From the NCBI GenBank assembly GCA_963666285.1, contig OY762711.1: 64,000 nt of DNA; one strand, given 5' to 3'. The notes under the pieces were generated by a model, which saw nothing but the letters and a program-made list of their open reading frames with translations, made no database searches and was not told the DNA's origin. The DNA is from Sedimentisphaerales bacterium (GTDB taxonomy: Bacteria > Planctomycetota > Phycisphaerae > Sedimentisphaerales > SM23-30). Of the stretch, positions 14,826 to 45,036 are shown in pieces (the stretch's first letter is position 1; every line of letters starts with the position of its first letter). The position numbers and the translations under genes are program-made.

Positions 14826-14992
14826 TAAGGATACCTTTGGAAATTGCTTTTGATGTGAGAACTAAATATTTTGTTTGCTGACAAGGAAGGTAAAACTGCT
14901 CATATTTAATGATATTTGCGGTTTTGTATGACGCAGTTCAGCGAGCAAAAGAGTAGTTCGCAACACAAAATGATTTTTTAGAGGTGACTCTA
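14826..14992 (+). repeat. Dispersed palindromic (MITE/REP-like) element, copy 1
   Basis: Shares TGGAAATTGCTTTT...TTTTGTTTGCTG.CAAG...CATATT...GCGGTTTT...GACGCAG...GCAAAAGA...AAAATGATTTTTTAGAG with copy 2; imperfect terminal inverted repeats; TA at both ends. Confidence 0.8.
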
Positions 14993-15046
14993 TAGTTATC
15001 TTTCACAATTTTCAAGTGGAAATTTATATTTTACAAAAGGCTACTT

Positions 15047-17965
15047 ATGTTTACCTCAAAAACAATTACATATTATTTGATAATCAGCAATATACTGTTT
15101 ATTGCTATCAACAGCGGCTGCCAACATACAAACACATGTTCCCAAAAGGTACCTTCCCAGAATTCTGACAATACCGCATCCTCCTTTTCTGATAGAAATT
15201 TTGATTCAAACTGGCATTTCCTTCGCGGCGACGCTGCCGGCGCAGCATTACCGGATTTTGATGACTCCCAATGGCGAATATTAGATGTGCCTCATGATTG
15301 GACCATCGAAGATCTTCCAGCCCCGAAAAACTCCGTTCCGGAGCTGTCGATAGTAGCAGGACAATGGCGGTTCCAAAAAGGTGATAATGCCGCATGGAAC
15401 TCTCCTGGATTCAACGACAGCAGTTGGCAGCTGGTAACTTTACCTGACAACTGGGAAGCTCACTCTAATTACACCGACGAAAACGTCTACGGCTGGTTTC
15501 GCCGTAAAATAAATATTCCTTCATACTGCATCGGCAAAGACTTTAACCTCCTGCTCGGCTGTATCGATGATGTAGATCAGACCTGGCTCAATGGCGTTCT
15601 TATCGGCAGTACCGGAACATTCCCGCCCAACTACCAGACGGCATGGAATATTGAACGAAAATACCTTATACCCGCTTCCCTGGTCAAAGGTGATGGCACA
15701 GATATTCTTGCAGTTCGGGTTTTCGACGGTAGCGGCAACGGAGGCATTAACCAGGCTGGAACGACTTTCACCCAAATCGGACCGTTTAACCCAGCCATAA
15801 GTCCGAGCAAACATTTTACCGGTAACACCGTTGGCGGTACCGGCTGGTATCGCAAACACTTTACCCTGGACGAAACCAACAAGCAGGTATCCGTAATCTT
15901 TGATGGCGTTTACATGAACTCAGAAATATGGCTTAACGACCATCGCCTGGGCGAACACCCTCACGGCTATACCGGCTTTATATTCGACCTTACACCTTAT
16001 CTAAATAAACCGGGCCAGGAAAACATACTTGCCGTGAAAGTTCGCAACGAAGGACGCAACAGCCGATGGTATTCTGGTTCAGGCATATATCGTCATGTAT
16101 GGCTGTCAGTAAATGAACCGGTACATATCCCTGACTGGGGAGTTTTTATCACCACTCCGAAAGTCTCTAAACAAAATGCACAAGTAAATATTTCAACTGA
16201 AATCAAAAACAACACACAATCAACTGTTAACGCAAGTGTCAAAACTAAAATACTCAATCACTCAGGCCAGACTATAGCAAACATTCAAAATACGGTTTCT
16301 ATTCAGCCCAATGCTATGATCACCCCTGAATATTCAATCGAAATAACTAATCCGCGACTATGGAGTACAGACACTCCCTATCTGTATACCGCAGAAACAT
16401 CCATTATCGTCAACGGTAAAATCAATGACATAAAAAACACGCCTTTCGGCATCCGCAAAATTGAAATTGATACCGTAAACGGGTTTCGACTTAATGACAG
16501 CAAAATACTACTCAAGGGCGGGTGCATCCATCACGATAACGGCCCGCTTGGCTCTGCCGCTATTGACCGCGCTGAATACCGACGAATTGAGCTGCTCAAA
16601 GCCAACGGTTATAACGCTATCCGCAGCAGCCACAACCCGCCCTCTTCTACTATGCTTCAAGCCTGCGACCAACTGGGAATGATGGTTATCGATGAGGCCT
16701 TTGACCAGTGGACCGTATCAAAGGAAAACAACCCGCAGGACTACAGCAGTTTCTTTAAGCAATGGCACACCCGCGACATTGCCGCTATGGTACGCCGCGA
16801 CCGCAACCACCCATCCGTTATCATGTGGTCTATCGGTAACGAAATACCAGAACAATTCAATGCCGAAGCCACCCAAAAAATGCTACGCGAAGAAGTTCTT
16901 TCGCATGACAATACTCGACCAATCACACAAGCCATTAGCGTCACCCACGATTGGGCCAAACGTTCCGACCCGGCATTCAAATACCTGGACGTCGCCGGTT
17001 ATAACTACCTCCTCCAGCATTATGAAGCTGACCACACCCGCAACCCGGAACGTGTTATTCTAACAACCGAATCATACCCCAAAGAAGCTTATGCCAATTG
17101 GGACAAAGTAGAAAGACTGCCATTCGTAATCGGCGATTTCGTCTGGACCGCCATGGATTATCTCGGCGAAGCCGGACTGGCACACAGCATTCTCAGCAAC
17201 GAACAAAACAGCTTCTTTATGCCATGGCCATATTTTAATGCCTGGTGCGGCGACCTCGACCTCTGCGGATTCAAAAAGCCTCAATCTTTATATCGCGATG
17301 TCGTTTGGGGCCGCAGCAAAATTGAAATGGTTGTTCACGCCCCTATCCCTGACGGCCTTACCGAGGTTCTTAGCTGGTGGGCATGGCCAAATGAATCTCA
17401 ATCCTGGAACTGGACCGGCAATGAAGGTAAACCACTACAGGTCTCGGTATATTCCAGCTGCGATACTGTCAGACTCGAATTAAACGGAAAAAATATCGGT
17501 GAAAAGTCTGTATCAGGCGAAACAAACCTTACCGCAAAATTTGACGTACCCTACGCCCCCGGCCAACTCCGTGCTGTAGGGCTGACAGATGGAAATATCG
17601 TCTCAGAAACTTCCTTAACTACCACTGGCAAACCTGTCGGAATTAAACTTACTGCCGACCGCAATATTATCAACGCCGACCGCAACGATCTTTCCTATAT
17701 CTCTGTTGAAATTGTCGATTCAAATGGCAATCGCGTCCCAAATGCCGAGATACCAATACGCTTCTCTGTCAGCGGTGCAGGAACCCTCGCCGGACAGGCC
17801 AGTGCTGCCCCCAATAAACCGGCAAGCTTCCAGTCACCTGCAAGAGAAACCTTCCAAGGCAGATGCATTGCTATTGTTCGCCCTACCGGCTCAAAAGGGA
17901 CTATTACTTTAAATGCCGCAGCTGAAGGACTAAAAACCGCTGCTATTACCATACAAACCAAATAG
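15047..17965 (+). CDS. GH2 glycoside hydrolase (beta-galactosidase-like) with a nested extra sugar-binding domain
   Basis: VPHDW, GWYRKHF, RWYSGSGIYRHV, GCIHHD, RSSHNP, RDRNHPSVIMWSIGNE and GDFVWTAMDYLGE; possible lipobox NSGC. Confidence 0.92.
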   Translation: MFTSKTITYYLIISNILFIAINSGCQHTNTCSQKVPSQNSDNTASSFSDRNFDSNWHFLRGDAAGAALPDFDDSQWRILDVPHDWTIEDLPAPKNSVPELSIVAGQWRFQKGDNAAWNSPGFNDSSWQLVTLPDNWEAHSNYTDENVYGWFRRKINIPSYCIGKDFNLLLGCIDDVDQTWLNGVLIGSTGTFPPNYQTAWNIERKYLIPASLVKGDGTDILAVRVFDGSGNGGINQAGTTFTQIGPFNPAISPSKHFTGNTVGGTGWYRKHFTLDETNKQVSVIFDGVYMNSEIWLNDHRLGEHPHGYTGFIFDLTPYLNKPGQENILAVKVRNEGRNSRWYSGSGIYRHVWLSVNEPVHIPDWGVFITTPKVSKQNAQVNISTEIKNNTQSTVNASVKTKILNHSGQTIANIQNTVSIQPNAMITPEYSIEITNPRLWSTDTPYLYTAETSIIVNGKINDIKNTPFGIRKIEIDTVNGFRLNDSKILLKGGCIHHDNGPLGSAAIDRAEYRRIELLKANGYNAIRSSHNPPSSTMLQACDQLGMMVIDEAFDQWTVSKENNPQDYSSFFKQWHTRDIAAMVRRDRNHPSVIMWSIGNEIPEQFNAEATQKMLREEVLSHDNTRPITQAISVTHDWAKRSDPAFKYLDVAGYNYLLQHYEADHTRNPERVILTTESYPKEAYANWDKVERLPFVIGDFVWTAMDYLGEAGLAHSILSNEQNSFFMPWPYFNAWCGDLDLCGFKKPQSLYRDVVWGRSKIEMVVHAPIPDGLTEVLSWWAWPNESQSWNWTGNEGKPLQVSVYSSCDTVRLELNGKNIGEKSVSGETNLTAKFDVPYAPGQLRAVGLTDGNIVSETSLTTTGKPVGIKLTADRNIINADRNDLSYISVEIVDSNGNRVPNAEIPIRFSVSGAGTLAGQASAAPNKPASFQSPARETFQGRCIAIVRPTGSKGTITLNAAAEGLKTAAITIQTK

Positions 17966-18123
17966 CACAACTCATGTCATTATCCTCCAATAAATAGTAC
18001 ATAAATTGCATTTTATATCCCTGTTTTAGTAATTATAATCTAATACATGTCATATTGAGCAATATATATAATTTTGACTCAATGTGAGCCCTCACCCAAA
18101 AGAGAATTATATTTACTAAGGCA

Positions 18124-20193
18124 ATGATAGATATGAAAAATGCATATAACGTTACACAACCGGACCTGGAACTCAGCCCTTTCACCGGCATGACCAGGAC
18201 ACACTATATTGACTGTGCTAAATACGTACTCGAACGAGCCTTCACCAAACACGTAAAATCATTTGAAGATCCGATTGTTTTCCCTACGCTGCCCGGCAGT
18301 AAAACATACCCGCTGCCAGGCGCCCCGGCATGGCGGCATCGCTCACACGAATGGGAAGCGTTTGAACGAACCTTCACTCTTGCCGGACCGCTTATACACG
18401 TTGACCCTGATATCAGCATCAACGGCATTAAACTCGATGATTACTACAAGCATCATCTCTATCAGGCCCTTACCCCCGGCAATCCCACCAGCCTGCCACT
18501 GCCGGAAGAGCTACCCGACGCAACCTACCAGTTCACCTGCGAATTCGGCGGACTGGCCAAAACGCTACTGCTCCTGCCCGACGTACTATGGCCGTCTTTC
18601 ACCCGACAGCAGAAAGACGAAATGGCTGTCACACTATCGAAATGGGCTCACCATCGAACAACCCAGAACAACTGGCGGATCTTCAATATCTGCGTACTGT
18701 CGTTCCTTAAGCTTAACGGCTATACCATCGACGAAGATCTCCTCAAAAGTCATCTCCTGTGGGTCGCCTCCTACCACGCAGGTGATGGCTGGTATCTCGA
18801 ACAGACTTACAACTACTACACCATCAGCCTATTTGTCGTTTACGGGGCTATCTGGTGCAGGGCTTTCGGCGATCAATACTACCCGGAAATTGTCGAAGTA
18901 CTCGAAAACAGCTTTCAGCAACTCATGAAAACATACACCAATTTCTTTGCCAGGGACGGATATATCAATATGTGGGCCCGAAGTATTTGCTATCGACTCT
19001 GGATCGCCGGCGGATTCCCCGTGTCGTTCATGCTTAAAAATAAGGCTCCGCTCGATCCGGGTTTTGCCCGCCGACTTTGCTCCGGAGCCATACTGCAGTT
19101 CACCGGCCGGGAACAGTTCTACCACAACGACATACCCAGCCTGGGCTTCTACGGCTACCGTGAATATGCCCTGCAAAGCTACAGCTGCCCCGCCAGCCCG
19201 TTTATTATGTTCCTGCCGTTTATCAGCCTGGCCCTACCCAAAGATTCGCCTTTCTGGACCGCTGCTGAAAACGAAGGCTACTGGCCCGAACTCGGCAATA
19301 AATCCCAAAGATCGGTTCTAACCAAACCCGGCCTGGTACTGGTCAATCACGGCAGCACCGGCACCTCTGAGATCATCTCCGGCAAGGTTTACGACGATGA
19401 CCACAACTATTCAAAACTAGTTTTCAATACCCATTTCCCATGGGAAGACCACAACCCGGACGGCGGCACATCACAGGAATACAGCTTCCGCAGCCTCGAC
19501 CCGCGCGACCTGGAAGGCGTCGATATTAACTTCTACCTTACCGGCAAAACCGTTGACAACGAAGCCTCCAAAAAGGCTGAGTTTACCACCTCGCAAAGCA
19601 TCCTGTTCAACGGCGTCCGCGACAACGTCCTGTACCGCCAGCTGATTATGCGCAAACCGCCCTTTAACGGCGTTGGCTACATTATCGACCTGGCTGAAAT
19701 AACCATCCCCGGCGGCGTTATACGCGTCGACCGCTGCCGACTCGCATTTGAACATGAAATGACTCTCGGACATTTCGCTCTGCCGCATTTCGACGGCCAA
19801 CCCGCCGAAATTGAGCAGATAAACGACCAGCACAAAACAGCACTCATCGCCTCCATCCCCGGCAGAAAAGTCGCTCTTATCGCTTATAACGGCTGGGACC
19901 GGCTCGAAACCCTTCAGCAGTCCGGCCGCAACGCTGAAGCCGACGAAAGTACCGTACTCTACGCTTATCGTAAACGAACCGAGCAAAACCCCGCTATGGA
20001 ACTCATGATCACCGCCATGCTGCACAAAACCGATGATATTCCCTGGACCGGCGACGAACTCAACATTGTCAAAAATATCAAAATCATGGACATTACCCCT
20101 ACCGGCTCGGTACTCGGTGCCATAATAACCCTCTCTGACGACACGACATATTCAGTAGACTTCAAAGACATCGACGGCTATAAATCATGCTGA
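18124..20193 (+). CDS. DUF2264 domain protein (GH154-like)
   Basis: LSPFTGMTR, QNNWRIF, GDGWY and WARSICYR motifs typical of DUF2264; no signal peptide. Confidence 0.75.
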   Translation: MIDMKNAYNVTQPDLELSPFTGMTRTHYIDCAKYVLERAFTKHVKSFEDPIVFPTLPGSKTYPLPGAPAWRHRSHEWEAFERTFTLAGPLIHVDPDISINGIKLDDYYKHHLYQALTPGNPTSLPLPEELPDATYQFTCEFGGLAKTLLLLPDVLWPSFTRQQKDEMAVTLSKWAHHRTTQNNWRIFNICVLSFLKLNGYTIDEDLLKSHLLWVASYHAGDGWYLEQTYNYYTISLFVVYGAIWCRAFGDQYYPEIVEVLENSFQQLMKTYTNFFARDGYINMWARSICYRLWIAGGFPVSFMLKNKAPLDPGFARRLCSGAILQFTGREQFYHNDIPSLGFYGYREYALQSYSCPASPFIMFLPFISLALPKDSPFWTAAENEGYWPELGNKSQRSVLTKPGLVLVNHGSTGTSEIISGKVYDDDHNYSKLVFNTHFPWEDHNPDGGTSQEYSFRSLDPRDLEGVDINFYLTGKTVDNEASKKAEFTTSQSILFNGVRDNVLYRQLIMRKPPFNGVGYIIDLAEITIPGGVIRVDRCRLAFEHEMTLGHFALPHFDGQPAEIEQINDQHKTALIASIPGRKVALIAYNGWDRLETLQQSGRNAEADESTVLYAYRKRTEQNPAMELMITAMLHKTDDIPWTGDELNIVKNIKIMDITPTGSVLGAIITLSDDTTYSVDFKDIDGYKSC

Positions 20194-20217
20194 AATTACA
20201 GATCAAATCAGCTGCTG

Positions 20218-20556
20218 CTAAAACTTCTTCATTATCGTTATCGCCAGATAATAGCATCCGATCATTATCCCGGTAGCCACCGTCATCGACAGAAAAAAGT
20301 TTACTCCGCGACTAAGCAAATACGGCAAAGCCAGGAAAAACACCAGCGACGGTATCACCAGCCAGAATATGTCTTTGGATAACGCTATGATCGGAGTAAC
20401 ATCTTTGTTCTCGCCATACATCCACAATATCGCCAAAAATGAGGTCAAAGGTATAGAGGCCAGTATCCCTCCCATCAGCGAGCTCCTCTTGCCAAATTCC
20501 GATATCAACACAATCAAAACTGCCGATACAACTAACTTAATAATGTAATATATCAT
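20218..20556 (-). CDS. Small membrane protein (DUF3147-like)
   Basis: IIKLVVSAVLIVLISE..KRS..MGGILASIPLTS; several hydrophobic helices. Confidence 0.75.
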   Translation of the reverse strand: MIYYIIKLVVSAVLIVLISEFGKRSSLMGGILASIPLTSFLAILWMYGENKDVTPIIALSKDIFWLVIPSLVFFLALPYLLSRGVNFFLSMTVATGIMIGCYYLAITIMKKF

Positions 20557-20642
20557 TCGCTATGCTTCCATAATGGTAATCCAAAATGCTCAGAATAATG
20601 AAAATATACTATATCATAAAGCTAAATCGAACTCAATAACTC

Positions 20643-20806
20643 AAAACTACTTCTGGAAATTGCTTTTATTGCGAAAGTGAAGTGTTTTGTTTGCTGGCAA
20701 GAAAGATAAAATCGTGCATATTGGCTATATTCGCGGTTTTATCTGACGCAGACCGGCAAGCAAAAGATCCATCTTTCGCTAAAAATGATTTTTTAGAGCT
20801 GCCCTA
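20643..20806 (+). repeat. Dispersed palindromic element, copy 2
   Basis: Same orientation and conserved blocks as copy 1; right end TTTTTTAGAGCTGCCCTA. Confidence 0.8.
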
Positions 20807-20848
20807 AATACATTACAAGGATATAAATATAGAACAAAAGTTAAATAA

Positions 20849-21700
20849 TTATCTTTTAATATCAGCCTTCAGTTTTTCTGCATCAATAAAATCATCTAAT
20901 GATTTTTGGCGATATTCTTCATTTAACTGTTCTGCCAGATGTTTTTTTACCTGTTCAAATGGAACTGTTTGTTCTGGAGATTTATCTATTACACGCGCGA
21001 TATGCCATCCAAATTCAGTTTCAAATGGTTCACTGGTTGCTCCCGGTTCTAATGCAAAAACAATATCTTCAAAAGCCTGAACCATATGCCCGCGAGGAAA
21101 CCAGCCCAGGTCCCCGGCATTATCCGGACAGGATGAATACTGTGATGCTATAGCTTCAAATGAGACACCTTCCTGAATTTGCTGGTAAAATTCAAATATT
21201 TTCTTTTGTAACTTATCTCTATCATTGCCGGAGCCGGGGTGAAGTACAATATGGGCGGCATGAACTAATTCCGGCTGGATAAACTGCTCTGGATTCTGTT
21301 CATAATATTCTCTGAGATATGATTCGGTCGGCTTTATTGAATTTTCCAGGATTTGATTATGCAAACGTTGAATTTTTAGACTATCGCATATTTGTTCGCG
21401 AAGTGTTGATTCCGCAACACCGGCCTTTTCCAGAAATTGCTCCTTGCTTTCAGATTGACTACTCATTTCCTGGAATATTTCGTCAATACTTGCCTGATCT
21501 ACTGGTAATTCATCAGCTAAGGCAACCTGCCGAAACAATACCTGCTCGATAAGATTTTCACATGCCCACTCATATAGCTGAAATTGCTTCTGTTCTCCAG
21601 TTAAATCTGAATCGAGCCTGTCATAATGAGGTTTCACCCTTTGGATTTCACGTTGAATATCGCTGTCAGATATTTCTTCACCGTTCACAAAAATTGCCAT
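20849..21700 (-). CDS. PpiC/parvulin-type peptidyl-prolyl isomerase (SurA/PrsA-like)
   Basis: HAAHIV, FEAIASQYS, GDLGWF, AFE and ETEFGWHI. Likely start ATG 21700 (MAIFVNG) after GGAG; the ORF-track start overlaps the upstream gene. Confidence 0.88.
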   Translation of the reverse strand: MAIFVNGEEISDSDIQREIQRVKPHYDRLDSDLTGEQKQFQLYEWACENLIEQVLFRQVALADELPVDQASIDEIFQEMSSQSESKEQFLEKAGVAESTLREQICDSLKIQRLHNQILENSIKPTESYLREYYEQNPEQFIQPELVHAAHIVLHPGSGNDRDKLQKKIFEFYQQIQEGVSFEAIASQYSSCPDNAGDLGWFPRGHMVQAFEDIVFALEPGATSEPFETEFGWHIARVIDKSPEQTVPFEQVKKHLAEQLNEEYRQKSLDDFIDAEKLKADIKR

Positions 21701-21743
21701 TATTTCTCCATACTTGTAGGGACTTCTTCTAACAACAGGCGGA

Positions 21744-22721
21744 TTAAATACCTCGATATTCCTCTTCAAGAACCATTGTCGGCAGTAAATAAAACTCACC
21801 CTTAAACTCGTCGATTCTTCCTGAAATCTTATATTTTACCGAACGGTTATTCGCCCGAATAGCTGACTCCATTAATTCCAGATACTGACAAGGTTGGATT
21901 ATCAGCGGCTTCTGACCGGTATTTCCATCACCACTTTCAAACATGAAATAGATTCGCCCCTCTGACTGATTGGGGACCAAACGGCCAACTCGATTGGTTA
22001 TTGTTGTATCATTCTCAAACTCATCAATTGCTCCCTGAGTGTCATTAATTGTCACGGAATCTTCATCAATGCTTTTCATCTTAAAGGGAAAAGGCATAAC
22101 GTTGACCCTGGGAACCTTCATTAGTTTATCTCTAACATACTGGGGAACAATACCCACATCTTCAGGATTTTGTTTATTGTCATTTTCCGGTTGGGTATAA
22201 TAAAATGGTGATGTCTGAGAATCTTTTTGCTTTGCAATCGCAGCTTCACTAAAAAGAGATTCAGTAGCAACCATAGTCAGCATAATAAAATTCCGCTTCT
22301 GGTATGAGGTAGCTTCACCCCATATGCGAAATACAATTCCATAGTCTGACTTATTATTTACTACTCGCAGCATAGTCTCCAGCCAACGGGAAGGTAACAC
22401 TTCAATAACTGAAACTTCAGGATTCTGCCTTACAACATCTAAATCTGCCTTCCCGTCTGAATTCGCCTGAATTTCGGTAATTGCCTTCTGTGTGTCTTTT
22501 GTAAACACCAGAAACCACTTGTCACCATCAGGATGTTCTATTAAACGAGCCTGCCTTCCAGAGAAGTAAAATCCTTCATTATATAGTTTATCAGTAATTG
22601 TCTTTTCTTTTACTGCACTAATTTGAGATTTCGACTCTTCTTCCGCGGCAAAACAATTTGAACTGTAAATACAAAACAGTGCAAATATTAAACATGCTAA
22701 AAAAAGTGATATCGGTTTCAT
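21744..22721 (-). CDS. Hypothetical exported protein
   Basis: 325 aa with signal peptide; internal similarity (VLPSRWLETM / IQPCQYLELM); overlaps the LOG stop codon. Confidence 0.7.
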   Translation of the reverse strand: MKPISLFLACLIFALFCIYSSNCFAAEEESKSQISAVKEKTITDKLYNEGFYFSGRQARLIEHPDGDKWFLVFTKDTQKAITEIQANSDGKADLDVVRQNPEVSVIEVLPSRWLETMLRVVNNKSDYGIVFRIWGEATSYQKRNFIMLTMVATESLFSEAAIAKQKDSQTSPFYYTQPENDNKQNPEDVGIVPQYVRDKLMKVPRVNVMPFPFKMKSIDEDSVTINDTQGAIDEFENDTTITNRVGRLVPNQSEGRIYFMFESGDGNTGQKPLIIQPCQYLELMESAIRANNRSVKYKISGRIDEFKGEFYLLPTMVLEEEYRGI

Positions 22722-23248
22722 ATTAAATATTTCGATTCCAGCAAATCAATTGCTTCTTCTACGTTATCAACACAATCTATATATCCTGATGATTTGTCAT
22801 CATGATTAATTACCTCACATATGACATTTTTCCAGGATTGACCTACTAAAACAAATGGCCTGGACTTAATGAACTTTTTATTCATCATTTCCCAGACCAT
22901 TGATATTTCCAATAAAGTGCCAGTTCCACCAGGCAATGCAACAAAACAATCTCCAAGCTCAATCAGTTTCATTAACCGATCATTAAGATTATCAGTACGG
23001 ATTTCTCTAGTCAACCACTTATTAGGACCACTCCTGTCAAACGCTGTGCATGTCACTCCAATTATCTCAACTGGAAATGAAGATGCTCCATATGACACCG
23101 CTGCCATGGTTCCTCCATAGCCACCATTGCTGACATTATATCCTTTTTCCGCTAAAATATGACCCAACTTATAAGCTTGCTCATATTCGGCTTCTACAGG
23201 CAATGGTTTTGATGATCCAAAAACAGTTATTGTTTTAGAGATAGCCAT
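22718..23248 (-). CDS. LOG family protein
   Basis: VFGSS, GGYGGTM and PGGTGTLLE motifs. Confidence 0.88.
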   Translation of the reverse strand: MAISKTITVFGSSKPLPVEAEYEQAYKLGHILAEKGYNVSNGGYGGTMAAVSYGASSFPVEIIGVTCTAFDRSGPNKWLTREIRTDNLNDRLMKLIELGDCFVALPGGTGTLLEISMVWEMMNKKFIKSRPFVLVGQSWKNVICEVINHDDKSSGYIDCVDNVEEAIDLLESKYLI

Positions 23249-23273
23249 CTTAATGCTATATCCGGATTAATTA

Positions 23274-23870: not shown

Positions 23871-23935
23871 CGCTGTATCTCCTTGTTAATCAATAACTTA
23901 ACCGAATGACTCACACTGAGCCCTTTTTACGGTAT

Positions 23936-25879: not shown

Positions 25880-25930
25880 GTCTAATTCTATTATTCCCTT
25901 TTATAGATAGGATTATTATCTATATCATTA

Positions 25931-34505: not shown

Positions 34506-35630
34506 ATGTTTACTAATAAACTGAATATATCTTCGATCGTGATTTTATTACTAATATCCTGTAATACTATTATCGCTGGAAATACTAATACTGTATCATA
34601 TCGATATTCTCCCTCGTTAACTGGCAATGCCGATGTCATTATTACTCAAAAGCCTAAATATAAATGGAATATTCAATTACCTGATACAATCAACAGCTGC
34701 CCGATAATTAATAATGAAAAAATGTTTGTTGGATGTAATAATAAAACTTTATATTGTCTTGATTCAACAAATGGCAAAACTATCTGGACATTCACTACCG
34801 ATGGCGGCATTGAAGCTTCTCCGGCTATACACAACAATATTGTACTGGCATGCTCGGCAGAAGGTACATTATATGCTCTTGATAAGAATGATGGAACCTT
34901 GCTATGGAAATTTACTACCGGGGCTAAAATTGCTGGAGCTGCAAATATATTTATTGACACAGAAAATAATACTGCCTTCACTCTCATTGGCAGCTACGAT
35001 AACAATATTTACTGTATTAATATATCAGATGGAAAATTAAAATGGAAATACGAAGCTGATAATTACATCAACAGCATGATTTCAATATACAACACAACAG
35101 CAATTACTGGCAGCTGTGATGGTTTTTTATATTTTATTGACATCAGAACTGGAGAGCTAAACAAAAAGATTGATTGCGAAACTTACATACCCGGATGGGC
35201 AGCTGTCAATAATGATATATGCTTTGTTGGCAATTACGATGGAAGCTTTTTCGCCTATGACACTAAAACTTACACCCTAAAATGGGTTCAAAAAGCAACT
35301 GAAAGCCCTTTCATGGAAGGTCCGGCAGTAAACGAAACTATGGTTATTGTCTCTGACAACGATGGAAAAATAAATGCACTCGACATTAACAACGGCAATG
35401 TCAAATGGAGTTTCTCTATTGATAACAAAAGACTATTTGCTCCTTGTATTGCTGGTCAATACATACTGACAAGCTCAGAAAATGGCAACCTGTACATAAT
35501 AAACATTAATGATGGTACCATCTTCTGGAAATATCTCATAGGCGACATATTAAGCACCCCTGTTTTTGTCAACTCTAAATATATTATGGTTGCTGATTCC
35601 GGCGGCAGAGTATATTGTTTTTCTTTTTAA
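34506..35630 (+). CDS. Secreted PQQ-like beta-propeller repeat protein (BamB-like)
   Basis: About 8 repeats of LY(C/A)L(D/N)..(D/N)G...W.(F/Y); signal peptide. Confidence 0.85.
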   Translation: MFTNKLNISSIVILLLISCNTIIAGNTNTVSYRYSPSLTGNADVIITQKPKYKWNIQLPDTINSCPIINNEKMFVGCNNKTLYCLDSTNGKTIWTFTTDGGIEASPAIHNNIVLACSAEGTLYALDKNDGTLLWKFTTGAKIAGAANIFIDTENNTAFTLIGSYDNNIYCINISDGKLKWKYEADNYINSMISIYNTTAITGSCDGFLYFIDIRTGELNKKIDCETYIPGWAAVNNDICFVGNYDGSFFAYDTKTYTLKWVQKATESPFMEGPAVNETMVIVSDNDGKINALDINNGNVKWSFSIDNKRLFAPCIAGQYILTSSENGNLYIININDGTIFWKYLIGDILSTPVFVNSKYIMVADSGGRVYCFSF

Positions 35631-38600
35631 CGCCCCCTCCGATCAACACCTTCACTGGAACGCATTATCCTTGTATAAGGAAGTCTGCCAAGCGAATCCA
35701 GGCGTTTTTCAATTATTTTTGAGGTCTCACTGTCTCCACAATAATAATATGCATCGGCAAGCCATAAATCATTTATTGAATCATAATTCGATAAAGAATT
35801 TGCTTTATTCAGGTATACCTTCGATGTTTCAGGAGATTTATCATATACAGAAATAGCTAACAATGAATAATTTCTTATTGCTATACTGGCTCTCATCACC
35901 TCATTATCTAGCTGTAAATTAATTTTCTCAAATACTATGTCAGAAAAATCTTTTATATCATCTGGATCGACATCTGCTAAAATATAATCATAATAAAAAT
36001 AATCATCATCCTGATTGGTACGCCCAATACAATCAGAAACTATATTCTTAAATATATCCATCTTACCTTTTCTTGCGCAATATCGTAAAGTTTCTTCTAT
36101 AAGCATGTGATCTTTACTTATCGTGTTAATGATATTATCTATAATATACATAACCAGTTTATCGGCTTCATCATCATTGCCGCAGAGCATTAACAATTTT
36201 AATTTTGCTGCCAATGCAGAAGATTCGTCAGGATTTTGTCTCAAAAAGCAATTAAGTAAATTTAGACTAACATGAATTCCATCTAGTTCTTTTTCATGAA
36301 GTTCACATAAATAATACAGAATTTCATGATAGTTAATTCGATACAGATTTTTCCCATAAGAAAAAACGTTAGAAGCAAATTGCATTTGCGCATACCTGAT
36401 TGCCTTTTCGTAATCTGCATTGTTATAATATGCTTTGGAAATTAACATCAAACCATCATCAAAAGCTGTTAATAGTACGCCAAAAGAATTTTCTACCATA
36501 TCGCAATGTCGGTTGTTCGTCAAATGCTTATGATAAAATAATGAAAATATCAGATAATTATCTATAAGAGAAAGTAATTGTTTCTTATATCTATATGATA
36601 AATCATCCTCAATTTTATTCAATAATTCTGGATCATATAGATATCTTGCATATGCTTGTGCATATGTTAATATATTAGTATTATTATCATCAATAACCGT
36701 CATCCAGAATCGTTGCAATTCTCTGAAAACTGGTTTGTTTTGAGCTATTTTATAAACTAACTTATGTTCAAAAGGCATAATAACAGTATTATCCAATTGA
36801 CGACTGGTTATTCCACCAAAAGTAAACATTTCTGGCCATTTACACGCATAACTGCTCGTAGAATTAGTACTAAATGAATCTCTAAAATATTGAAGCATAA
36901 ATTCATTATTAGACATTAAATAATAAACTGTTAAGTAATCCATTTTTCTTAGTTTATCAGGAACATTTTTCGCCATTTGAACTGCTAAATCAGATTTTCC
37001 TGCAAGACTATAATATCCGACTAAATTGTGATAGACAATAGGAGTAATGCCAGCCTTAGGTTCCAAGTTAGCCCTGAATATATCAGCTAATTCTTGATAA
37101 TCTCCTGTAGATTCGTATATACTGGCAACATTTTTTCTATATACTAAACAATTTGGTTCTTTGATATAAGCATAACCGGCATATACTTTTGCGTTTATAT
37201 AATCACCTTGATAATAATAAATTAAAGACCTTAAATAATCACATGCAGCAATATTTTTACAATTCTCCCATTGAATATTATCTGCAATAACTAATAATTC
37301 TTTTGGAGATAAAACTAAAACAAGAGTTTCTAGCATACGTGAAGAATTAACATTAATAATGGAATTATTAATTATATTTTCTATTGAAGCTATAACATCA
37401 ATAATATATTTATCCCTATCGTATGAATATTGAAAACATTTCAATTTAATAACTTGATAAGCAGGTTCTGTAGGATATTCATCAATTAGTTTAGTAATAA
37501 GCAGTAATGATAGATTCTTATTAATTACAGCACTGCTAAAAAAATTAATATAATCGTTAAAAGTATTTTCTGCATTTTCATTGCTGAATGAATATGTTTT
37601 TATCTTCTGTTCTAACAAAACGGATATGTCATCATCAATATTGGCTCCTAAATAGATAATCAATTTAAGAAATTGTAACGCAGCCTTATCTCCCAGGCTC
37701 TGCAAAAAGCGATTAATTATATTTTCGTACGATGTCATGGCTGATTTGCTTAATATTTCAATTGTGCTGATAGCAGGATCACTTGTAATATTAATAGAAC
37801 TCAAAATACAATCGTCTGGATATTGTCCTAACACACCTGAATCAAGTTTAATTAGAATAACATAATGATTATGCTCATAAGAAACACCTGCTACCACATC
37901 ATAAAATGCTAAATGCTGCTCATCCGACAATCTACTCCATATCGAATAATAGAATTGCCTGATTATTTTCTTATCAACATTTTTATTTATCTGTAGATTT
38001 TCCAAAAACACTTTTGCCGAATTAAAAACAGAATTATTTGACTGCATAACCGCACAATTGCTTAAATATAACTTTAATATATCATTATTGACAGAATAGT
38101 AGGACAACTTGGAAAACTCAGTATCAATATTAAAGTCATCAGATGCAATGTTAAAACCTGCTGGCTCCAAATCTTCAAATATCTTATCAAAGAAACTCTG
38201 TAGTTTGTCATAACAATCAAAATTGACTACTCTAATTTTATCTGCTAGTTTTAGCAAATACTCATAGCGGGAAGTCTGTCTGCAAACATAAGTCATATCC
38301 AGTATAAACTGCATCATTCGAGTGTAAACATTTTGATCACTGCAATATTCACAGCACATCATTATTTCATCTTCAATCAGGCTGACAACTTGACGATCTA
38401 TATCGCTCGCCGAATACATCATGCCGTTTAGCACGGTTTGCCTTAATTTGTTCATCTCGGCATAATTTGATGTTTGAGTTTCTCCTGAAATAGAAACTGC
38501 ATAATTCTGGTATATTAAACGAAACAATTTAAATGCTTCCTGGTATTGGCCCTCGGATACATATGTATATGCCTGCATTAATAATAAATCGTTATTATCT

Positions 38601-41600
38601 GGACTATATGTTAAAGCTTCCTGGAGAATCAAACGGCATCGATCTGTCATGCCTTCATTTCGATAATATTCTGCAACATCCATATATTCTTGCGGGTTAT
38701 ACGTATCACTTAGATAACATTTTAGTACATATTCAGCTTCATAATACATACCATTATTTAACAGGGTCATACATATCCCAAAATAATCCTGACTGGATAA
38801 TTTGCAATTTGTTATGAGTAATATTCTTGACAAATCAATTCGCAAATCTTCAGGAATATCAGCATAACGCAGCGCATGTCTGATGAGCTGGTAACTTCTA
38901 TCTGGCGCATAAACCATCGCGGTCAAAACAACATTTGATATAAGTTCATATTGCTTCATCGAATCAATTATGTCAAGAGCAAGATAATATAACATTGTAT
39001 TTTCAGGCGAATGAGTTATATATTCATACACAACATATAATGTATCGTAAAGTTCTTCTTCGGCAATATCCATATTCAAAATTGAATCTACCGCATAACT
39101 CAATAATACAATATCTGGATTGCCATGTATAACTTCTTTTACCCTGGATAGTGCTTCAGCCTGCTTACCTGCTGCTATCGAAGCATTAACCCAGGAAAGC
39201 AGCAGTTCTCCATTATCCGGATATTTATCTAACATTGGCTGCAAAAGCTGCATTGCTCGCTCGTGATCTCCGATCAAACCGGCTGCGCAGGATTGTTGAT
39301 ATACTTTAATTAAATTGTTAATCGAAATCTCTTTTAGCTCGTTACGGACAAAATTAATTACTCCTGATTCACCTCTGAGAGAAGCCAATACTCCAAGCTT
39401 TCGCAAGTACATATCATAATTATCTTTATCTTTTTCAAGAAGCTGCATAAGCATTTGTTCGCACAAATTATAATCCTGGGTGATTAGATATGCCTGATGC
39501 TTAATCTGCAATGATTCTACTGTATCACTACCGTAATACTGATCTATCAAATCTGTTACTGAAACGGAATCCTGGATACTAAGATATATTGACATTAGAA
39601 GATAAAAAGTATCTACATCTTTTGTTTGTTCATATTCATATTCGAGATCAACTGTTAATTCCGGCAGTTTCCCTGTTTTCCTGGCAAGATCCAGTAGCTT
39701 TGTCTCTGCCGATACACCATCTGAATTTTTTGTCAGCTTCCATATTTCCTGCCATGCCTGATACGCCTTATCTAAATTATTAAACTTCTCGTATAGCATA
39801 GCTACAGACACATAATATTTTATATCAGAAGACTTATTGTATGCTTGTTTTAAAAGATCTATTGCTTTTTCCGGCTCGCCAACTTTCTCGTAAATTTGTG
39901 CAATTTCAGACTGCAAACTGTAAGGAAGAGTTTCCGATTCTAATAGATATTCAAGTATTTCAAAGAGTTCTGTTTTCTTGTTTTGCGCAATTAAAGATTC
40001 AGCGTACAGAATAGCCGCCTGAAAACCGATACCCTGATCTATTTCCATCATTTTTTTGGCGGCCTTTTCTGCTGTAGAAAATAAGGAATACCTCAATGAA
40101 AAATATGCCAGACTTATCAGATTGTCAGTATCAATATTGGTATCAATATAATCACTTAACATCTGACCGGCCTCATTTCGACGCCCTGCCATTATTTTCA
40201 GTCTTGCCTGAAACAAAATACTCAGCTTGATATCTGCAAATAATTTACCTACTTCATCATGCATATCGTTATCGGAAATCGAGTATGCTGATATTAATTG
40301 CTGATCCCAGAATTTATTATTAGAAATATCTGATTCCTGCTTGTTCCTTTGCCTGTTATAGATATTAATAAATTCACGATATTCTTTATTTAATATATAT
40401 GAGACGGCTATCATATCCGAATATTTTCCACTGTCTTTTTCAGGTTCGGCGACAGCTTTTATAATATTTCCCATATGCTGGCCGTTTTTATCGGCAGACA
40501 GCAATCCCCAGGCTAAAACCATTCTCCCAAAATAATACTCCAAATCGCCTGTAAGTATCTCGCTGAACATATCTGTTGACCTGGTAAAATCACCACACTG
40601 ATAATGAGCGATTGCACTTAAACATTTCAAATGATCATCATCAATGTCTTTATAATATAGGTCTTTAGTGGCAGCAGAATAATCACCATTTAAAATAGAA
40701 CTCAATAAATAATTCTTAGATTGGGCCGGATTTAGATCGCTTCTATCTAAATCTCGTCCCTTATCGTTAACTTCACCTGCAATGGTGTTACCTGCCAGTG
40801 ATAATGTTAAAACTATAAATATCACAGCATTGAGAAATTCGACATTTTTTCTTCTGAAATATATGCCAAACAAAAAGATAGATAATGAAATCAGGACAAA
40901 AAACTGCCAGATGTTTATACTTTCCGTAATATCCACCTCATTTACAGATCCTATTTCTGGCATATTATCATTCCATGGCATTCTATTTTTTTCGTTTATT
41001 AAATTATACGAACACTGAGCGCTGTCTAACACTCTGCCGCTGGAATCTGCTATTGCAACCGAATAAAAACCTGACTCCAAATCATCAAACTCAGCATGCA
41101 AACTAATGTTGCCGGTAGATGAGCAATACATTTGTTGTTCTGCTATTACCTTATTATCCATGATTAGCCTCGCTTTGGGCTTCTGAATACAGCATTCTAC
41201 CCCTGCTTCTAATCTATATTTTATATTAAGTTTATCTCCGACCTGGGCATATTCAAGAGTATCAGTTTTGTTTTTCCTGACTAACTGCTTACATAAATTC
41301 TGAAACAAAATGCTGGTACTATCATTATTATAAAAAAGAGTATTTCCGGTACAAAAAACCACCTGTCCCAAACCATAATGCCTTATACTTAAAACCGGGT
41401 TACCGTTATTGTCATACAAGATATTCTGGCTGTCCTGTTTAGATTTTGAAAAATAATAATTCTTCGATAAACTGAGACCGGCAAAATCAACATTGCTCAT
41501 AACCCTGTGTGGTAATCCAGGTAATAGATTAACTGAATCTATTCCTGCTGCATCTCCAATATTGGAATATACCGAGTTAAAATTTAACACCGGCATCGAA

Positions 41601-43267
41601 AACCTGTCTCTGGAATGGAAGAAAACCCCTTTACCAAGATTACTGATATTATACATCTTAGAGGCATTGACAGAATTATTAACACATATTGTTGAAAGCG
41701 TAATTTTATCTTTTGTGATAAGATTTATATCTCTGGACAAATCAATCTTTTCTATATTCCCGTCTGTAATAACGACTATATGCCTGGTAGATGAGTTAAC
41801 ATTTAATAGACCATAATAAGCTTCCTGCAAAGCTGGATATAATATTGTCGAACCTCCGTACGTGAGCCGATTGATTGCACGGTTTATCTCTAATGTGTTT
41901 GCTGCAGACTGCATTGGCGCTGCCCAACGCCTATTACCATAAAATTCGACAATTCCGGCCAGATCACGTTCTGATAGATTAGCAATAGTATTCCTTATTA
42001 TCTCTTTTGCAATTAATAATCGGTCACCCTCCATACTTTTTGATGTATCAATTACAAAGACTATTGCATTAGTCGAAACGGCATTCTGATTCTTTTGGTA
42101 AATATCAACCGGAAGCATTTCTTTCATATCTTTATTGTTTATAACTTTGTCATTAAAGAAGTTAGGACTTGGCAGAATCAACAACCCCATTCCTTCAAGC
42201 AATCTCTGCTGTATTACTTCAATAAATTCACTAATATTATTATCGATTCCCATATCTTGTACTACCAGTAAATCGGCTGAGAGCAAGTCTGACACTTCAT
42301 TCAATCTGCTTAGCTCCAGGTATCCGCCCAGTACTTGCTGAATATTTTCATAAACAGCGTCTTCTTCAACAAGCACAGAAACTTTGGGCATATCGCAGGC
42401 ATTAATGGACTTATAAATTCTATCATTAAGAATATCACATTCTTTGCCTTGAAGTTCAAATTCAAGATTTACATTTTTATTACTGACAGAAACCGGAATA
42501 TTTATAATATTTCTGCCTTCAGCAATAAGTAATTCGCCATCAATAACAACTGGATTATCGTTATTTTTTACTAAAACAGTAACATTGCATTCAATATTTG
42601 AATCGACAACTAATCTTGCCGTTATATTCTGGCCAACTGATATCGATGCTGGTAAAAATACATTTTCTAATGAAATACGTGGTTTCTTATCGGGGCTGGC
42701 AAGTTCAGTGTGAACCGATATGCCGGGATATACTCTGGCCAACTCATGAAAATTAATTATATTCTGAGTTTCAACTCCATCGGTATATAAATATATATCT
42801 CCTTTCCCTTCTAATATACTTACTGCATATAGAACAGCATCCCTGATATTTGACTGGTGAAAATATGTATCTGATACATTAGAAAATATCCCGCTCTTTC
42901 GCTTCCTCATATCTGGAAGTCTGCCTGTGTTTACATCATTAGAACCAACATGCAATGGCTTTTCTGCAAAAACTATATATTCCAGCTGATCGTAGTATTC
43001 TTTTTTCAATTCACTGGAAACTAATTCATTTGCACTATCTAAACCATGGTCGGTTATGCTTGCTGACACATCTATCAAACCTACAGCTTTCCTTGCTTTT
43101 TTTGTAAAACTGAGAACTGGCTGGCAATAAGCGGCAAAAATCATAAATATGCATGAAAATGTAATTAATAGCATTATCTTCCGGCGTCTTTGCAATTTTA
43201 AAAAGAACACCACGCTTAATATTGCAAGTGATATAAATAATATGACATAATTATTCCCTGCAAACAT
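35627..43267 (-). CDS. Giant membrane protein: two vWA domains, a CARDB/GATase-like region, a transmembrane hairpin and a long TPR-like helical tail
   Basis: MIDAS motifs IDVSAS...YTDG and IDTSKSM...ITDG; RHYGLGQV; two TM segments near residues 785-830; about 1700 aa of helical repeats. Confidence 0.8.
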   Translation of the reverse strand: MFAGNNYVILFISLAILSVVFFLKLQRRRKIMLLITFSCIFMIFAAYCQPVLSFTKKARKAVGLIDVSASITDHGLDSANELVSSELKKEYYDQLEYIVFAEKPLHVGSNDVNTGRLPDMRKRKSGIFSNVSDTYFHQSNIRDAVLYAVSILEGKGDIYLYTDGVETQNIINFHELARVYPGISVHTELASPDKKPRISLENVFLPASISVGQNITARLVVDSNIECNVTVLVKNNDNPVVIDGELLIAEGRNIINIPVSVSNKNVNLEFELQGKECDILNDRIYKSINACDMPKVSVLVEEDAVYENIQQVLGGYLELSRLNEVSDLLSADLLVVQDMGIDNNISEFIEVIQQRLLEGMGLLILPSPNFFNDKVINNKDMKEMLPVDIYQKNQNAVSTNAIVFVIDTSKSMEGDRLLIAKEIIRNTIANLSERDLAGIVEFYGNRRWAAPMQSAANTLEINRAINRLTYGGSTILYPALQEAYYGLLNVNSSTRHIVVITDGNIEKIDLSRDINLITKDKITLSTICVNNSVNASKMYNISNLGKGVFFHSRDRFSMPVLNFNSVYSNIGDAAGIDSVNLLPGLPHRVMSNVDFAGLSLSKNYYFSKSKQDSQNILYDNNGNPVLSIRHYGLGQVVFCTGNTLFYNNDSTSILFQNLCKQLVRKNKTDTLEYAQVGDKLNIKYRLEAGVECCIQKPKARLIMDNKVIAEQQMYCSSTGNISLHAEFDDLESGFYSVAIADSSGRVLDSAQCSYNLINEKNRMPWNDNMPEIGSVNEVDITESINIWQFFVLISLSIFLFGIYFRRKNVEFLNAVIFIVLTLSLAGNTIAGEVNDKGRDLDRSDLNPAQSKNYLLSSILNGDYSAATKDLYYKDIDDDHLKCLSAIAHYQCGDFTRSTDMFSEILTGDLEYYFGRMVLAWGLLSADKNGQHMGNIIKAVAEPEKDSGKYSDMIAVSYILNKEYREFINIYNRQRNKQESDISNNKFWDQQLISAYSISDNDMHDEVGKLFADIKLSILFQARLKIMAGRRNEAGQMLSDYIDTNIDTDNLISLAYFSLRYSLFSTAEKAAKKMMEIDQGIGFQAAILYAESLIAQNKKTELFEILEYLLESETLPYSLQSEIAQIYEKVGEPEKAIDLLKQAYNKSSDIKYYVSVAMLYEKFNNLDKAYQAWQEIWKLTKNSDGVSAETKLLDLARKTGKLPELTVDLEYEYEQTKDVDTFYLLMSIYLSIQDSVSVTDLIDQYYGSDTVESLQIKHQAYLITQDYNLCEQMLMQLLEKDKDNYDMYLRKLGVLASLRGESGVINFVRNELKEISINNLIKVYQQSCAAGLIGDHERAMQLLQPMLDKYPDNGELLLSWVNASIAAGKQAEALSRVKEVIHGNPDIVLLSYAVDSILNMDIAEEELYDTLYVVYEYITHSPENTMLYYLALDIIDSMKQYELISNVVLTAMVYAPDRSYQLIRHALRYADIPEDLRIDLSRILLITNCKLSSQDYFGICMTLLNNGMYYEAEYVLKCYLSDTYNPQEYMDVAEYYRNEGMTDRCRLILQEALTYSPDNNDLLLMQAYTYVSEGQYQEAFKLFRLIYQNYAVSISGETQTSNYAEMNKLRQTVLNGMMYSASDIDRQVVSLIEDEIMMCCEYCSDQNVYTRMMQFILDMTYVCRQTSRYEYLLKLADKIRVVNFDCYDKLQSFFDKIFEDLEPAGFNIASDDFNIDTEFSKLSYYSVNNDILKLYLSNCAVMQSNNSVFNSAKVFLENLQINKNVDKKIIRQFYYSIWSRLSDEQHLAFYDVVAGVSYEHNHYVILIKLDSGVLGQYPDDCILSSINITSDPAISTIEILSKSAMTSYENIINRFLQSLGDKAALQFLKLIIYLGANIDDDISVLLEQKIKTYSFSNENAENTFNDYINFFSSAVINKNLSLLLITKLIDEYPTEPAYQVIKLKCFQYSYDRDKYIIDVIASIENIINNSIINVNSSRMLETLVLVLSPKELLVIADNIQWENCKNIAACDYLRSLIYYYQGDYINAKVYAGYAYIKEPNCLVYRKNVASIYESTGDYQELADIFRANLEPKAGITPIVYHNLVGYYSLAGKSDLAVQMAKNVPDKLRKMDYLTVYYLMSNNEFMLQYFRDSFSTNSTSSYACKWPEMFTFGGITSRQLDNTVIMPFEHKLVYKIAQNKPVFRELQRFWMTVIDDNNTNILTYAQAYARYLYDPELLNKIEDDLSYRYKKQLLSLIDNYLIFSLFYHKHLTNNRHCDMVENSFGVLLTAFDDGLMLISKAYYNNADYEKAIRYAQMQFASNVFSYGKNLYRINYHEILYYLCELHEKELDGIHVSLNLLNCFLRQNPDESSALAAKLKLLMLCGNDDEADKLVMYIIDNIINTISKDHMLIEETLRYCARKGKMDIFKNIVSDCIGRTNQDDDYFYYDYILADVDPDDIKDFSDIVFEKINLQLDNEVMRASIAIRNYSLLAISVYDKSPETSKVYLNKANSLSNYDSINDLWLADAYYYCGDSETSKIIEKRLDSLGRLPYTRIMRSSEGVDRRGR

Positions 43268-44859
43268 TACTCGATAACCTCCCTTTGATATAAAACCGAT
43301 TCTAATAGCAATAAAGAGATTACTAGCAATGAGAATATTCCGTATAGACTTTTATGTTTGGACTTGAATATATTACTATCCTTTATTTTCTCAGTATTTG
43401 TGCTTATTTCATAAGTATCGAGTAACATATCCGCATTAGATTTTCCTGCCAATTCACTAAACGTATCACTTATCATATAATTCATAAACTTTATATAACT
43501 GCTTTGCTTCCAAAAACTCGATTCTAAATCAAACAAGGCCCCTGAAATATATAAATTCTCAATTTTGCCTATTTTACTTTTTGCAGCCAGATACTGACCA
43601 TTTGCATGCAATAGATACGGCCAAACACTAATATCACAAGAAAAACCGTCAGTTGATTTGATAAATATATTATCATATTCATTACTATATCCTGGAGAGT
43701 CAAAACCCATAGCAGGAGTTGCTTTAGAGTATGATTCTGCTGTTTCGTATGGCTTGACAACTATCCGAGAGTGTGTTTCATCAGCATCATCAGCAGTTAT
43801 TAGAATGTCTGCATTTGTCTTGGTTTTTACCGACTTAAACCTGATATCCGAATCCAGATAAAGCTTCAAAGAAACCGGTAATTCTATTTCAGAATAATAA
43901 TTAACATTGCACGTTGCATCTTCTAATGTGTTATCTCCGGGAAATAGGTCTTTACTCAGCAATCGAAAAACCGGCTCGTGCAAGCCAGTGGGAATTGTGT
44001 ACGCGAAGGTCTGATAGGTACCGCTTTTCATTTTTTCTGGAAATGACAATACCTCCTGATTACCATCAAATAATTTAACAGTAAAATTATACTCTTGCTC
44101 ATCCGGACCAAAGCATACTAATGACAACATCGCTTTGTCAATTGCTAATTCTTCGCTTGTAATTATTTTGACATCTAAAATCGCAATATTGAAATTAGTT
44201 TCAATCGGGTTTAAAACATAAAAACCGCCATAATCGTCAATATCTCCCGCTATACCCAAACCCTTGTCAGAAAATACAAATACCTGTGTTTCAGGCATAG
44301 AACCGACAATTGACTTGGCTGTAGCAAGGGCATAAATACAACTGCTGTCTCCGGAGTTTTTTCCAATTTTCAATTGAGCGATATTATTTAAAACTAAATT
44401 TTTATTACCTGATTGTTCTGTGTATATATCGACAGTATCACTATAACTGATTATAGTTATTTGATCATAATGATCTATATTTTCCAAAAGATCGTAGCAG
44501 TCCAGTTTTGCCTTGTCTAAACGTGAAATACCTTTCCCGGGTATAATTTCACCCATAGTATCTCTGGTATCAAAGACAAATATGTAATTTTGGTTAATCC
44601 CACGGGTTATTACCGGGTGCAGTAGTGTTATACAATAAAATATTAATATCAGTATTAAAAATAGAAAGGTTCTGATATTATAAAATTTACCGGAGATTTT
44701 ATTATATTTTACACCGCCGGATACCTGACTCCAAAAATATAATCCAGCTACTGTAATTCTTCTTCGCCTTGTATGCAAAAAATGACAGCAAAACAATACT
44801 ACTGCGCTTATTAGAAACACCAATGCAGTAATATATATTGTCAAACCACTAAAGATCAA
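43267..44859 (-). CDS. BatA-like N-terminal double-TM + vWA domain protein
   Basis: HFL..RRRRITV.GLYFW BatA-like N-terminus; degenerate MIDAS FDTRDTM...FSD; C-terminal TM ending LLLES; RBS AGGAG before TTG. Confidence 0.75.
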   Translation of the reverse strand: MIFSGLTIYITALVFLISAVVLFCCHFLHTRRRRITVAGLYFWSQVSGGVKYNKISGKFYNIRTFLFLILILIFYCITLLHPVITRGINQNYIFVFDTRDTMGEIIPGKGISRLDKAKLDCYDLLENIDHYDQITIISYSDTVDIYTEQSGNKNLVLNNIAQLKIGKNSGDSSCIYALATAKSIVGSMPETQVFVFSDKGLGIAGDIDDYGGFYVLNPIETNFNIAILDVKIITSEELAIDKAMLSLVCFGPDEQEYNFTVKLFDGNQEVLSFPEKMKSGTYQTFAYTIPTGLHEPVFRLLSKDLFPGDNTLEDATCNVNYYSEIELPVSLKLYLDSDIRFKSVKTKTNADILITADDADETHSRIVVKPYETAESYSKATPAMGFDSPGYSNEYDNIFIKSTDGFSCDISVWPYLLHANGQYLAAKSKIGKIENLYISGALFDLESSFWKQSSYIKFMNYMISDTFSELAGKSNADMLLDTYEISTNTEKIKDSNIFKSKHKSLYGIFSLLVISLLLLESVLYQREVIE

Positions 44860-44879
44860 TCAGCAAACTCCTAATAATA

Positions 44880-45036
44880 TAGATAACCTCTGGAAATCGT
44901 TTTGATGCGATAATTTCTGGTTGCTGACAAGAAACATGAAATCGTGCATATTGGCCTGTATTCACTGTTATATGTGGCACATGTCAGCAGACATAAGAAA
45001 AACTTCACGCTTCTAATGAGTTTTCATAGGTTACCT
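44880..45036 (+). repeat. Dispersed palindromic element, copy 3, inside the MoxR operon
   Basis: Ends AGATAACCTCTGGAAA / TTTCATAGGTTACCT; shares TTGCTG.CAAGAAA.AT.AAATCGTGCATATTGGC with copy 2. Confidence 0.75.

Follow-up and report, generated by a model that had tools for sequence, protein, structure and literature searches.

The 64,000-nucleotide stretch of contig OY762711.1 from Sedimentisphaerales bacterium (assembly GCA_963666285.1) analyzed here, hereafter the window, carries three copies of a palindromic element, all on the + strand and each folding into one interrupted hairpin. The copies belong to a family of non-coding, 161-bp miniature inverted-repeat transposable elements, or MITEs, with ends of the insertion sequence (IS) family IS5 and 4-bp target duplications. 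The orientation of the family tracks replication, not transcription, and the data suggest that its conserved hairpin core works as single-stranded DNA (ssDNA) at the replication fork rather than as RNA. The original prediction, made from the letters of the window, had the copies and their common orientation right, although its limits took in a few target-site bases; the GG..CC ends and the flanking 4-mers set the exact limits (Table 1). The flanks of the three copies read TTAA/CTAT, TCAA/TAAA and TATA/TTTA, with a perfect duplication in none of the three, and the window copies are among the more decayed members of the family. Copy 3 sits inside a MoxR AAA / DUF58 / vWA gene cluster (35627-46953) that includes a gene for a 2546-aa vWA/TPR protein.

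Table 1. Coordinates of the MITE copies and their parts within the window (ORF, open reading frame).
Feature	Position	Length	Strand	Remarks
MITE copy 1	14829..14989	161 bp	+	flanked by a 204-aa ORF and a GH2 beta-galactosidase-like gene, both +
Copy 1 left terminal repeat	14829..14845	17 bp	+	matches IS5 left end
Copy 1 structured core	14870..14948		+	outer stem, CAAG (14882-14885) / GACGCAG (14930-14936) internal loop, inner stem, CATATT apical hairpin
Copy 1 right terminal repeat	14973..14989	17 bp	+	matches IS5 right end
MITE copy 2	20645..20804	160 bp	+	left end decayed; flanked by two - strand genes (PPIase, PRK09272-type)
Copy 2 structured core	20686..20763		+	CAAG 20698-20701; GACGCAG 20745-20751
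MITE copy 3	44882..45035	154 bp	+	left arm with 6-bp deletion
Copy 3 decayed core	44916..44994		+	GGCACAT replaces GACGCAG; core-model E 6e-4
Copy 3 right target site TTTA	45036-45039			a - strand DUF58 gene, which ends at 45037, has its TAA stop within this site

A profile built from the three window copies recovers 60 full-length copies and 26 partial loci in the source genome (G000), all of them on contig C1, and a profile search of contigs C2-C4 returned no copies. The mean pairwise identity of copies is 82%. The unit of ~161 bp is intergenic: none of the 60 full copies overlaps a called gene by >20 bp, and ~9 of the 60 are 2 bp or less from the end of a called gene, by our own rough gene calls of a 97% complete genome, in which, for example, a 112-aa gene beside copy 2 was overlooked. 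A full-length model matched 2 of 20 genomes carrying the corresponding IS5 clade and 3 of 151 genomes in the phylum, the source genome included, and no match to the MITE was found in the plasmids, phages and viral contigs searched. At gathering level, Rfam gave no match in the window and none on the elements in 20 loci. Two variants of the unit were also observed. The locus L274 (G000 C1:5229562-5229657) is a longer core variant without IS5-type ends, adjoining tRNA-like sequence, and many copies in a second genome, G003 (e.g. C1:324231), have a short CCCCGA..TCGGGG-type palindrome at the apex; the left arm of L259 contains a comparable palindrome.

The ends of the unit are 17-bp GG..CC terminal inverted repeats. 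Both ends could be located in all but 2 of the 60 copies, and 34 of these 58 have identical 4-bp flanks, compared with a mean of 9.6 and a maximum of 19 under shuffled pairing; the duplicated 4-mers are AT-rich, with TTAA, TAAA, TTTA and TATA among them. An empty paralogous site was found for one of the 60 copies tested: copy C1:1255535-1255695 is flanked by TTTA twice, and the paralogous C1:3884359 has TTTA once, with an extra T in the adjacent run. Contigs of three sequencing runs showed no empty site for copies 1 and 2. The resemblance to IS-type terminal repeats that had been noticed in the window extends to IS5-family elements of relatives, where 1.3-kb elements with matching ends encode a transposase (G015 and G017). 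The 342-aa G015 transposase scores 277.7 bits against the NF033581 IS5 model (cut-off 140) and 157 against the IS1182 model, short of the cut-off of 270. Ends of the GG(G/C)NNCCTCTAAAAA type are present at many of the 45 homologous transposase loci examined, often with AT-rich 4-bp duplications, and the closest relatives of the transposase are in Phycisphaerae and Sedimentisphaerales records. Genome G352 contains both the IS (eight copies examined) and >30 MITE matches. Similarity between IS and MITE is limited to the ends, with the MITE 3' end matching the IS right end (E 6.5e-4), and the core was not found in the autonomous IS5 elements examined.

The original prediction had placed the element in a MITE/REP-like family. 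The short non-coding form, terminal repeats, 4-bp duplication, single empty site and existence of an IS with the same ends bear out the first half of this label; the REP/RAYT-like half is not supported, as the ends and the duplication match IS5-family DDE elements. Because these ends and the 4-bp duplication point to strand transfer of the DDE type, performed in trans by an IS5 transposase, the MITE is likely copied by such an enzyme. Other transposases of the source genome (DUF772 and DDE_Tnp_1 matches) were considered as partners and rejected, since their ends differ. An N-terminal QxxLF/QxxFF motif is present in 20 of 30 homologues of the IS5 transposase and is close to the beta-clamp motif tested for IS5a in PMC3971601, where IS5a peptides carrying a clamp-type motif are reported to bind beta and IS5a is reported to be biased on some chromosomes.

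From GC skew, the replication origin of the source genome lies at ~5.742 Mb and the terminus at ~2.698 Mb. By global replichore, the folding strand of the MITE is on the leading-strand template, which gives it the sequence of the nascent lagging strand, in 51 of 60 copies (p 3e-8). Grouped by flanking genes, this placement is found in 23/28 leading, 12/13 lagging, 11/13 divergent and 5/6 convergent contexts. Copies among lagging-strand genes are mostly sense to transcription (12/13) and those among leading-strand genes mostly antisense (23/28), and the co-directional contexts together give 17 sense and 24 antisense copies (p 0.35). As a proxy for fork direction, we took the local skew of fourfold-degenerate sites, with its sign set by gene strand. 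By this measure the folding strand is on the leading-strand template in 48 of the 50 clear copies of the source genome (the 10 unclear ones dividing 8 and 2) and in 40 of 40 clear copies of G003 (from 42 full copies in regions around 51 pattern hits, 2 being unclear), 15 of which lie in blocks opposed to the global replichore. The 22 copies of another family in G159 (22 of 24 pattern hits, 6-kb windows) agree without exception, so that 110 of 112 clear cases in the three genomes follow the fork. The global replichore count in G003 (24/42) and the scattered orientations in G159 first spoke against a bias, and local skew resolved both. Truncated loci of the source genome are equally biased (23/26). 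The original prediction had left the choice between an RNA and an ssDNA structure open; because orientation follows replication direction and not transcription, the data favor ssDNA.

Some separate observations concern skew and other repeats in these genomes. In G003 C1 and G159 C1, both single-contig genomes, GC skew flips in blocks for genes of both strands, which suggests many inversions, acquired blocks or mis-assembly. Copies in the source genome (+/-30 kb) lie in domains of strong skew (-0.22 vs -0.09 for lagging-oriented gaps; 0/300 random sets as strong), as they do in G159 (0.20 vs 0.14, p 0.004; L429-L448) and not in G003 (p 0.12). A second high-copy repeat family of the source genome has IS701-like ends and a replichore bias of 70-86%, and heptamer-array families of that genome have little.

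Strand-specific folding was reproduced for the window copies. As RNA, the + strand of copies 1, 2 and 3 has z = -6.5, -5.2 and -3.5, with 0/200 shuffles as stable, and the - strand folds more weakly (z = -3.0, -1.4 and -1.5). The unpaired motifs are present as had been described (CAAG and CATATT in all copies, GACGCAG in copies 1-2, GGCACAT in copy 3). Across the 60 full copies, the + strand fold is the better one in 58 as RNA (-60.8 vs -45.1 kcal/mol) and in 53 as DNA. Of the compensatory stems that had been proposed, the inner-stem changes are true double substitutions, whereas the difference between GAACTA/TAGTTC and GCGAAAG/CTTTCGC is due in part to a one-base shift of register between subfamilies, and this register-shifted helix was excluded from both covariation counts. 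Covariation persists across more copies and genomes: in 36 sequences from 17 genomes, 90.1% of paired cells can pair, compared with 79.5% when shuffled and 42-54% in slid registers, and double changes occur in 26 of 45 pairs. On a tree, 35 branch-level double changes preserve the pair, where the null averages 5.2 and reaches at most 21 in 5000. The reliance on G-T pairs that makes the fold favor one strand is likewise seen, with 123 G-T and 19 A-C. Mutation bias in place was considered as a source of the G-T pairs and rejected, because the element strand is G-rich (+0.18) yet located on the C-rich strand. The CAAG/ACGCAG loop is the most conserved part of the core, and of 41 cores, 40 have GC and 1 has UA at the lone G-C pair within it; reading the right motif as a DNA GNA-triloop suits 27/41 cores only and was set aside.

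Resident copies give a different picture. In 40 copies of the main subfamily, rare variants per site number 0.96-1.18 at paired and 0.70 at unpaired positions, and of 130 private mutations at pairs, 88 break and 42 keep the pair (32% vs 26% expected). Resident copies decay at about the neutral rate, and only spreading copies retain the fold. The original prediction had invoked selection in place of neutral decay, and this is upheld between subfamilies and genomes, where stems covary, and fails for resident copies, which decay; since private mutations break pairs near-neutrally, selection would act on copying. Among truncated copies, 3 of 22 carry sequence of the opposite arm, which points to pairing of the arms as DNA. 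In such template-switch copies (G000 C1:786849, 866567 and 3549099; L395, L396) the left arm runs on into the right arm's reverse complement. The tetramer GATC occurs at many truncation or deletion junctions (G000 C1:869768, 917034, 1736441, 4230552, 5181682, 5550920 and 5796658), perhaps by chance.

The core also occurs as a separate module. In G352 and G449, the stem-CAAG-stem-hairpin-stem-ACGCAG-stem unit is found inside at least 5 other terminal repeats. A core model matched 4 of 41 genomes in the class of a gammaproteobacterial record (G338) and 4 of 40 genomes in the phylum of a Smithella record (G345), with unrelated ends and with several of these matches at E 0.001-0.02, and 0 of 41 genomes in the phylum of G340. 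In total, the CAAG/ACGCAG core lies inside unrelated terminal repeats in three phyla. A pattern-plus-pairing descriptor hit known G000 copies at only 11 sites, compared with 3 hits in a reversed control, and turned up no new family. The occurrence of the core within several unrelated terminal repeats favors a host factor over a single transposase as its reader. Tentatively, the CAAG/ACGCAG hairpin may be a new cross-phylum ssDNA signal that is read by a host fork factor and that unrelated MITE families (perhaps ERIC too) have captured for copying and insertion at fixed polarity, a possibility that falls short of being probable. Such a signal, if real, would explain why MITEs outnumber their parent IS elements.

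The mechanism we propose, and to which we give about even credence, is that of an IS5-type MITE whose ssDNA core fixes insertion polarity at the replication fork. The transposase would be tethered to the beta clamp through its N-terminal QxxLF/QxxFF motif and hence be placed at the fork. Either the transposase or a fork protein of the host may then read the folded core, with its unpaired CAAG/ACGCAG loop, and this reading would both raise the copying rate and impose the polarity of new insertions.

Several points weigh against fork-set polarity through the core. Transposition itself was never observed, and the 4-bp duplication implies double-stranded DDE strand transfer, which leaves unexplained how an ssDNA fold sets polarity. 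The strands differ by only ~4 kcal/mol in the DNA fold. A transposase bounded by the same ends, which the original prediction had suggested seeking, exists in the relatives G015, G017 and G352, whereas a homologue search for the IS5 transposase found none in the source genome (97% complete) or in G003. Orientation bias is weaker in G352 (23 elements of several shells, 16 of them clear and 11 of these in the favored orientation) and in E. coli repeats that we take to be ERIC/IRU, hereafter ERIC-like (9/13). The second repeat family of the source genome is biased too (43:17, 40:9 and 32:5 by k-mer), which may mean that the host replisome contributes some of the effect. The control with autonomous IS5 elements (6 lagging and 7 leading of 13 clear among 20) is a weak one: it is small, and its elements belong either to G352, itself weakly biased for the MITE, or to a distant host. 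Finally, fork direction is judged only indirectly, from local skew, which forms a mosaic in G003 and G159.

Among the alternatives, purging after insertion survives best, and we consider it unlikely. Both orientations would insert, and the stronger hairpin, when on the lagging-strand template, would fold at the fork and be deleted or counter-selected, as with attC of large chromosomal integrons. The orientation that survives agrees with that reported for the bottom strands of attC in sedentary integrons (PMC5371416), products of internal deletion and template switching do occur, and three of the four local exceptions in the source genome are among the 26 youngest copies, which is what purging predicts and counts, in small numbers, against polarity set at insertion. 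To produce the observed bias, purging would require >95% loss of one orientation from the ~4 kcal/mol difference between strands. Truncated remnants, some of which have one end only, are as biased as full copies, and the conserved unpaired loop and the covariation between subfamilies are left unexplained by purging.

It is improbable that polarity arises from the transposase and clamp alone, through asymmetric ends and the beta clamp, with the core carried along as a passenger and template switching maintaining the complementarity of its arms. The clamp-type motif in 20/30 transposases, the beta-binding peptides and chromosomal bias of IS5a (PMC3971601), the biased second repeat family and the template-switch products in 3/22 truncated copies would all fit. 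The autonomous elements of the clade are unbiased, however (6:7, in the weak control above), and template switching would erase the CAAG/ACGCAG loop, yet this loop is the most conserved and recurs inside unrelated ends in three phyla. The excess of G-T over A-C also requires a strand-specific constraint.

At best as credible is a structured RNA, either with a cis effect on mRNA stability, as for ERIC in Yersinia, or as a transcript assisting mobility. The large strand difference of the RNA fold in 58/60 copies and the G-U pairs and loops with tandem G-A resembling RNA motifs are consistent with this, as is the orientation-dependent effect of ERIC on mRNA (PMC2229807, PMC10969869). In about half of the 41 cores, moreover, the top-scoring site at one register is a sigma70-like hexamer pair. 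An internal promoter was rejected because this signal is weak, its scores barely exceeding those of shuffles (7.3 vs 6.8). Orientation is independent of transcription and follows replication, resident copies decay at about the neutral rate, and no Rfam family reaches gathering level, all of which argue against RNA. A core acting as a single-strand priming signal, like ssi/sso or primosome assembly sites (PAS), by which a peeled strand would be made double-stranded before insertion, is very improbable: the long strand-specific imperfect hairpin, its conserved unpaired bases, independence of the transposase shell and tie to replication polarity would suit it, but the promoter-like signal is weak and an origin-like role in place is rejected because skew neither flips nor turns one-sided at the element.

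How bacterial MITEs are copied, and why many of them fold along their full length, are open questions, and the fold is usually read as RNA. In the family described here, the fold is selected between lineages and not in resident copies, and the strand follows the fork in nearly all clear cases of three genomes. This offers a direct assay, in which insertion polarity and rate could be followed with core mutants, together with a defined motif for a search for binding proteins, and the element could mark past replication direction in rearranged genomes. In the literature searched (mostly without subscription papers), there was no description of this MITE family, of a core common to MITE shells or of MITE polarity by GC skew. 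The MITE class is ordinary, and the surprise lies in the polarity and the shared core. The repeat bcr1 of the Bacillus cereus group has a fixed orientation relative to replication. An orientation bias of IS elements is already known as well (PMC3971601). Polarity by itself is therefore no novelty; what stands out is how strong it is in a DDE-type MITE, together with the transferable core. A 2007 review remarked that MITE mobilisation lacked experimental support (PMC2229807).

Among known systems, the family resembles type II prokaryotic MITEs, in which similarity to the IS is confined to the terminal repeats (PMC10969869): it is short, non-coding and intergenic, with terminal repeats, a target duplication, a long stem-loop and a partner IS in trans. 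It is unlike those MITEs, as described in that review, in its near-absolute replication orientation and in a covarying core common to unrelated ends; the words "replication" and "orientation" occur 0 times in it. With IS5 elements of the NF033581 type it shares the GG(G/C)NNCCTCTAAAAA-type ends and AT-rich 4-bp duplication, unlike them lacking a transposase, and the IS elements examined have neither the core nor, in a small sample, an orientation bias. E. coli ERIC-like repeats likewise form one long hairpin with CAAG opposite AACGCAG around an inner stem, and some copies carry a second, outer CAAGG/AACGCCG loop. ERIC is 127 bp with TA termini (PMC2229807 Table 1), in contrast to the 161 bp, GG..CC ends and 4-bp duplication of the MITE, and the replication bias of ERIC-like repeats is weak, unlike that of the MITE in G000, G003 and G159. 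Against core model R2 the best ERIC match is not significant (E 1.7), and the descriptor recovered 1 of 13 ERIC-like loci. As a side observation, the Rfam family V_AS5 (Vibrio antisense RNA) matches the E. coli ERIC-like repeat at L338:1465-1584 (E 2e-6, below gathering level) and may itself be ERIC-derived.

The repeat bcr1 is also mobile and shows compensatory changes, and differs in its cruciform double hairpin, its 5-bp duplication and its lack of IS5-type ends (PMC3184786). REP/REPIN sequences, described as 20-40 bp palindromes with a GTAG/CGTC tag (PMC3733652), are distinct from a 161-bp unit with GG..CC ends and a 4-bp duplication. The attC sites of sedentary chromosomal integrons are similar in having a strand-specific ssDNA hairpin, unpaired features and the active strand on the leading-strand template (PMC5371416). 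They flank cassettes in arrays and recombine through IntI, whereas the MITE copies are dispersed, occur in gene contexts of every kind and have terminal repeats and target duplications, and membership among integron attC sites was rejected on these grounds. The IS200/IS605 and REP/RAYT elements employ HUH chemistry and short hairpins where the MITE has DDE-type ends and a 4-bp duplication; with these ssDNA elements the family shares a fork-linked orientation and hairpin recognition.

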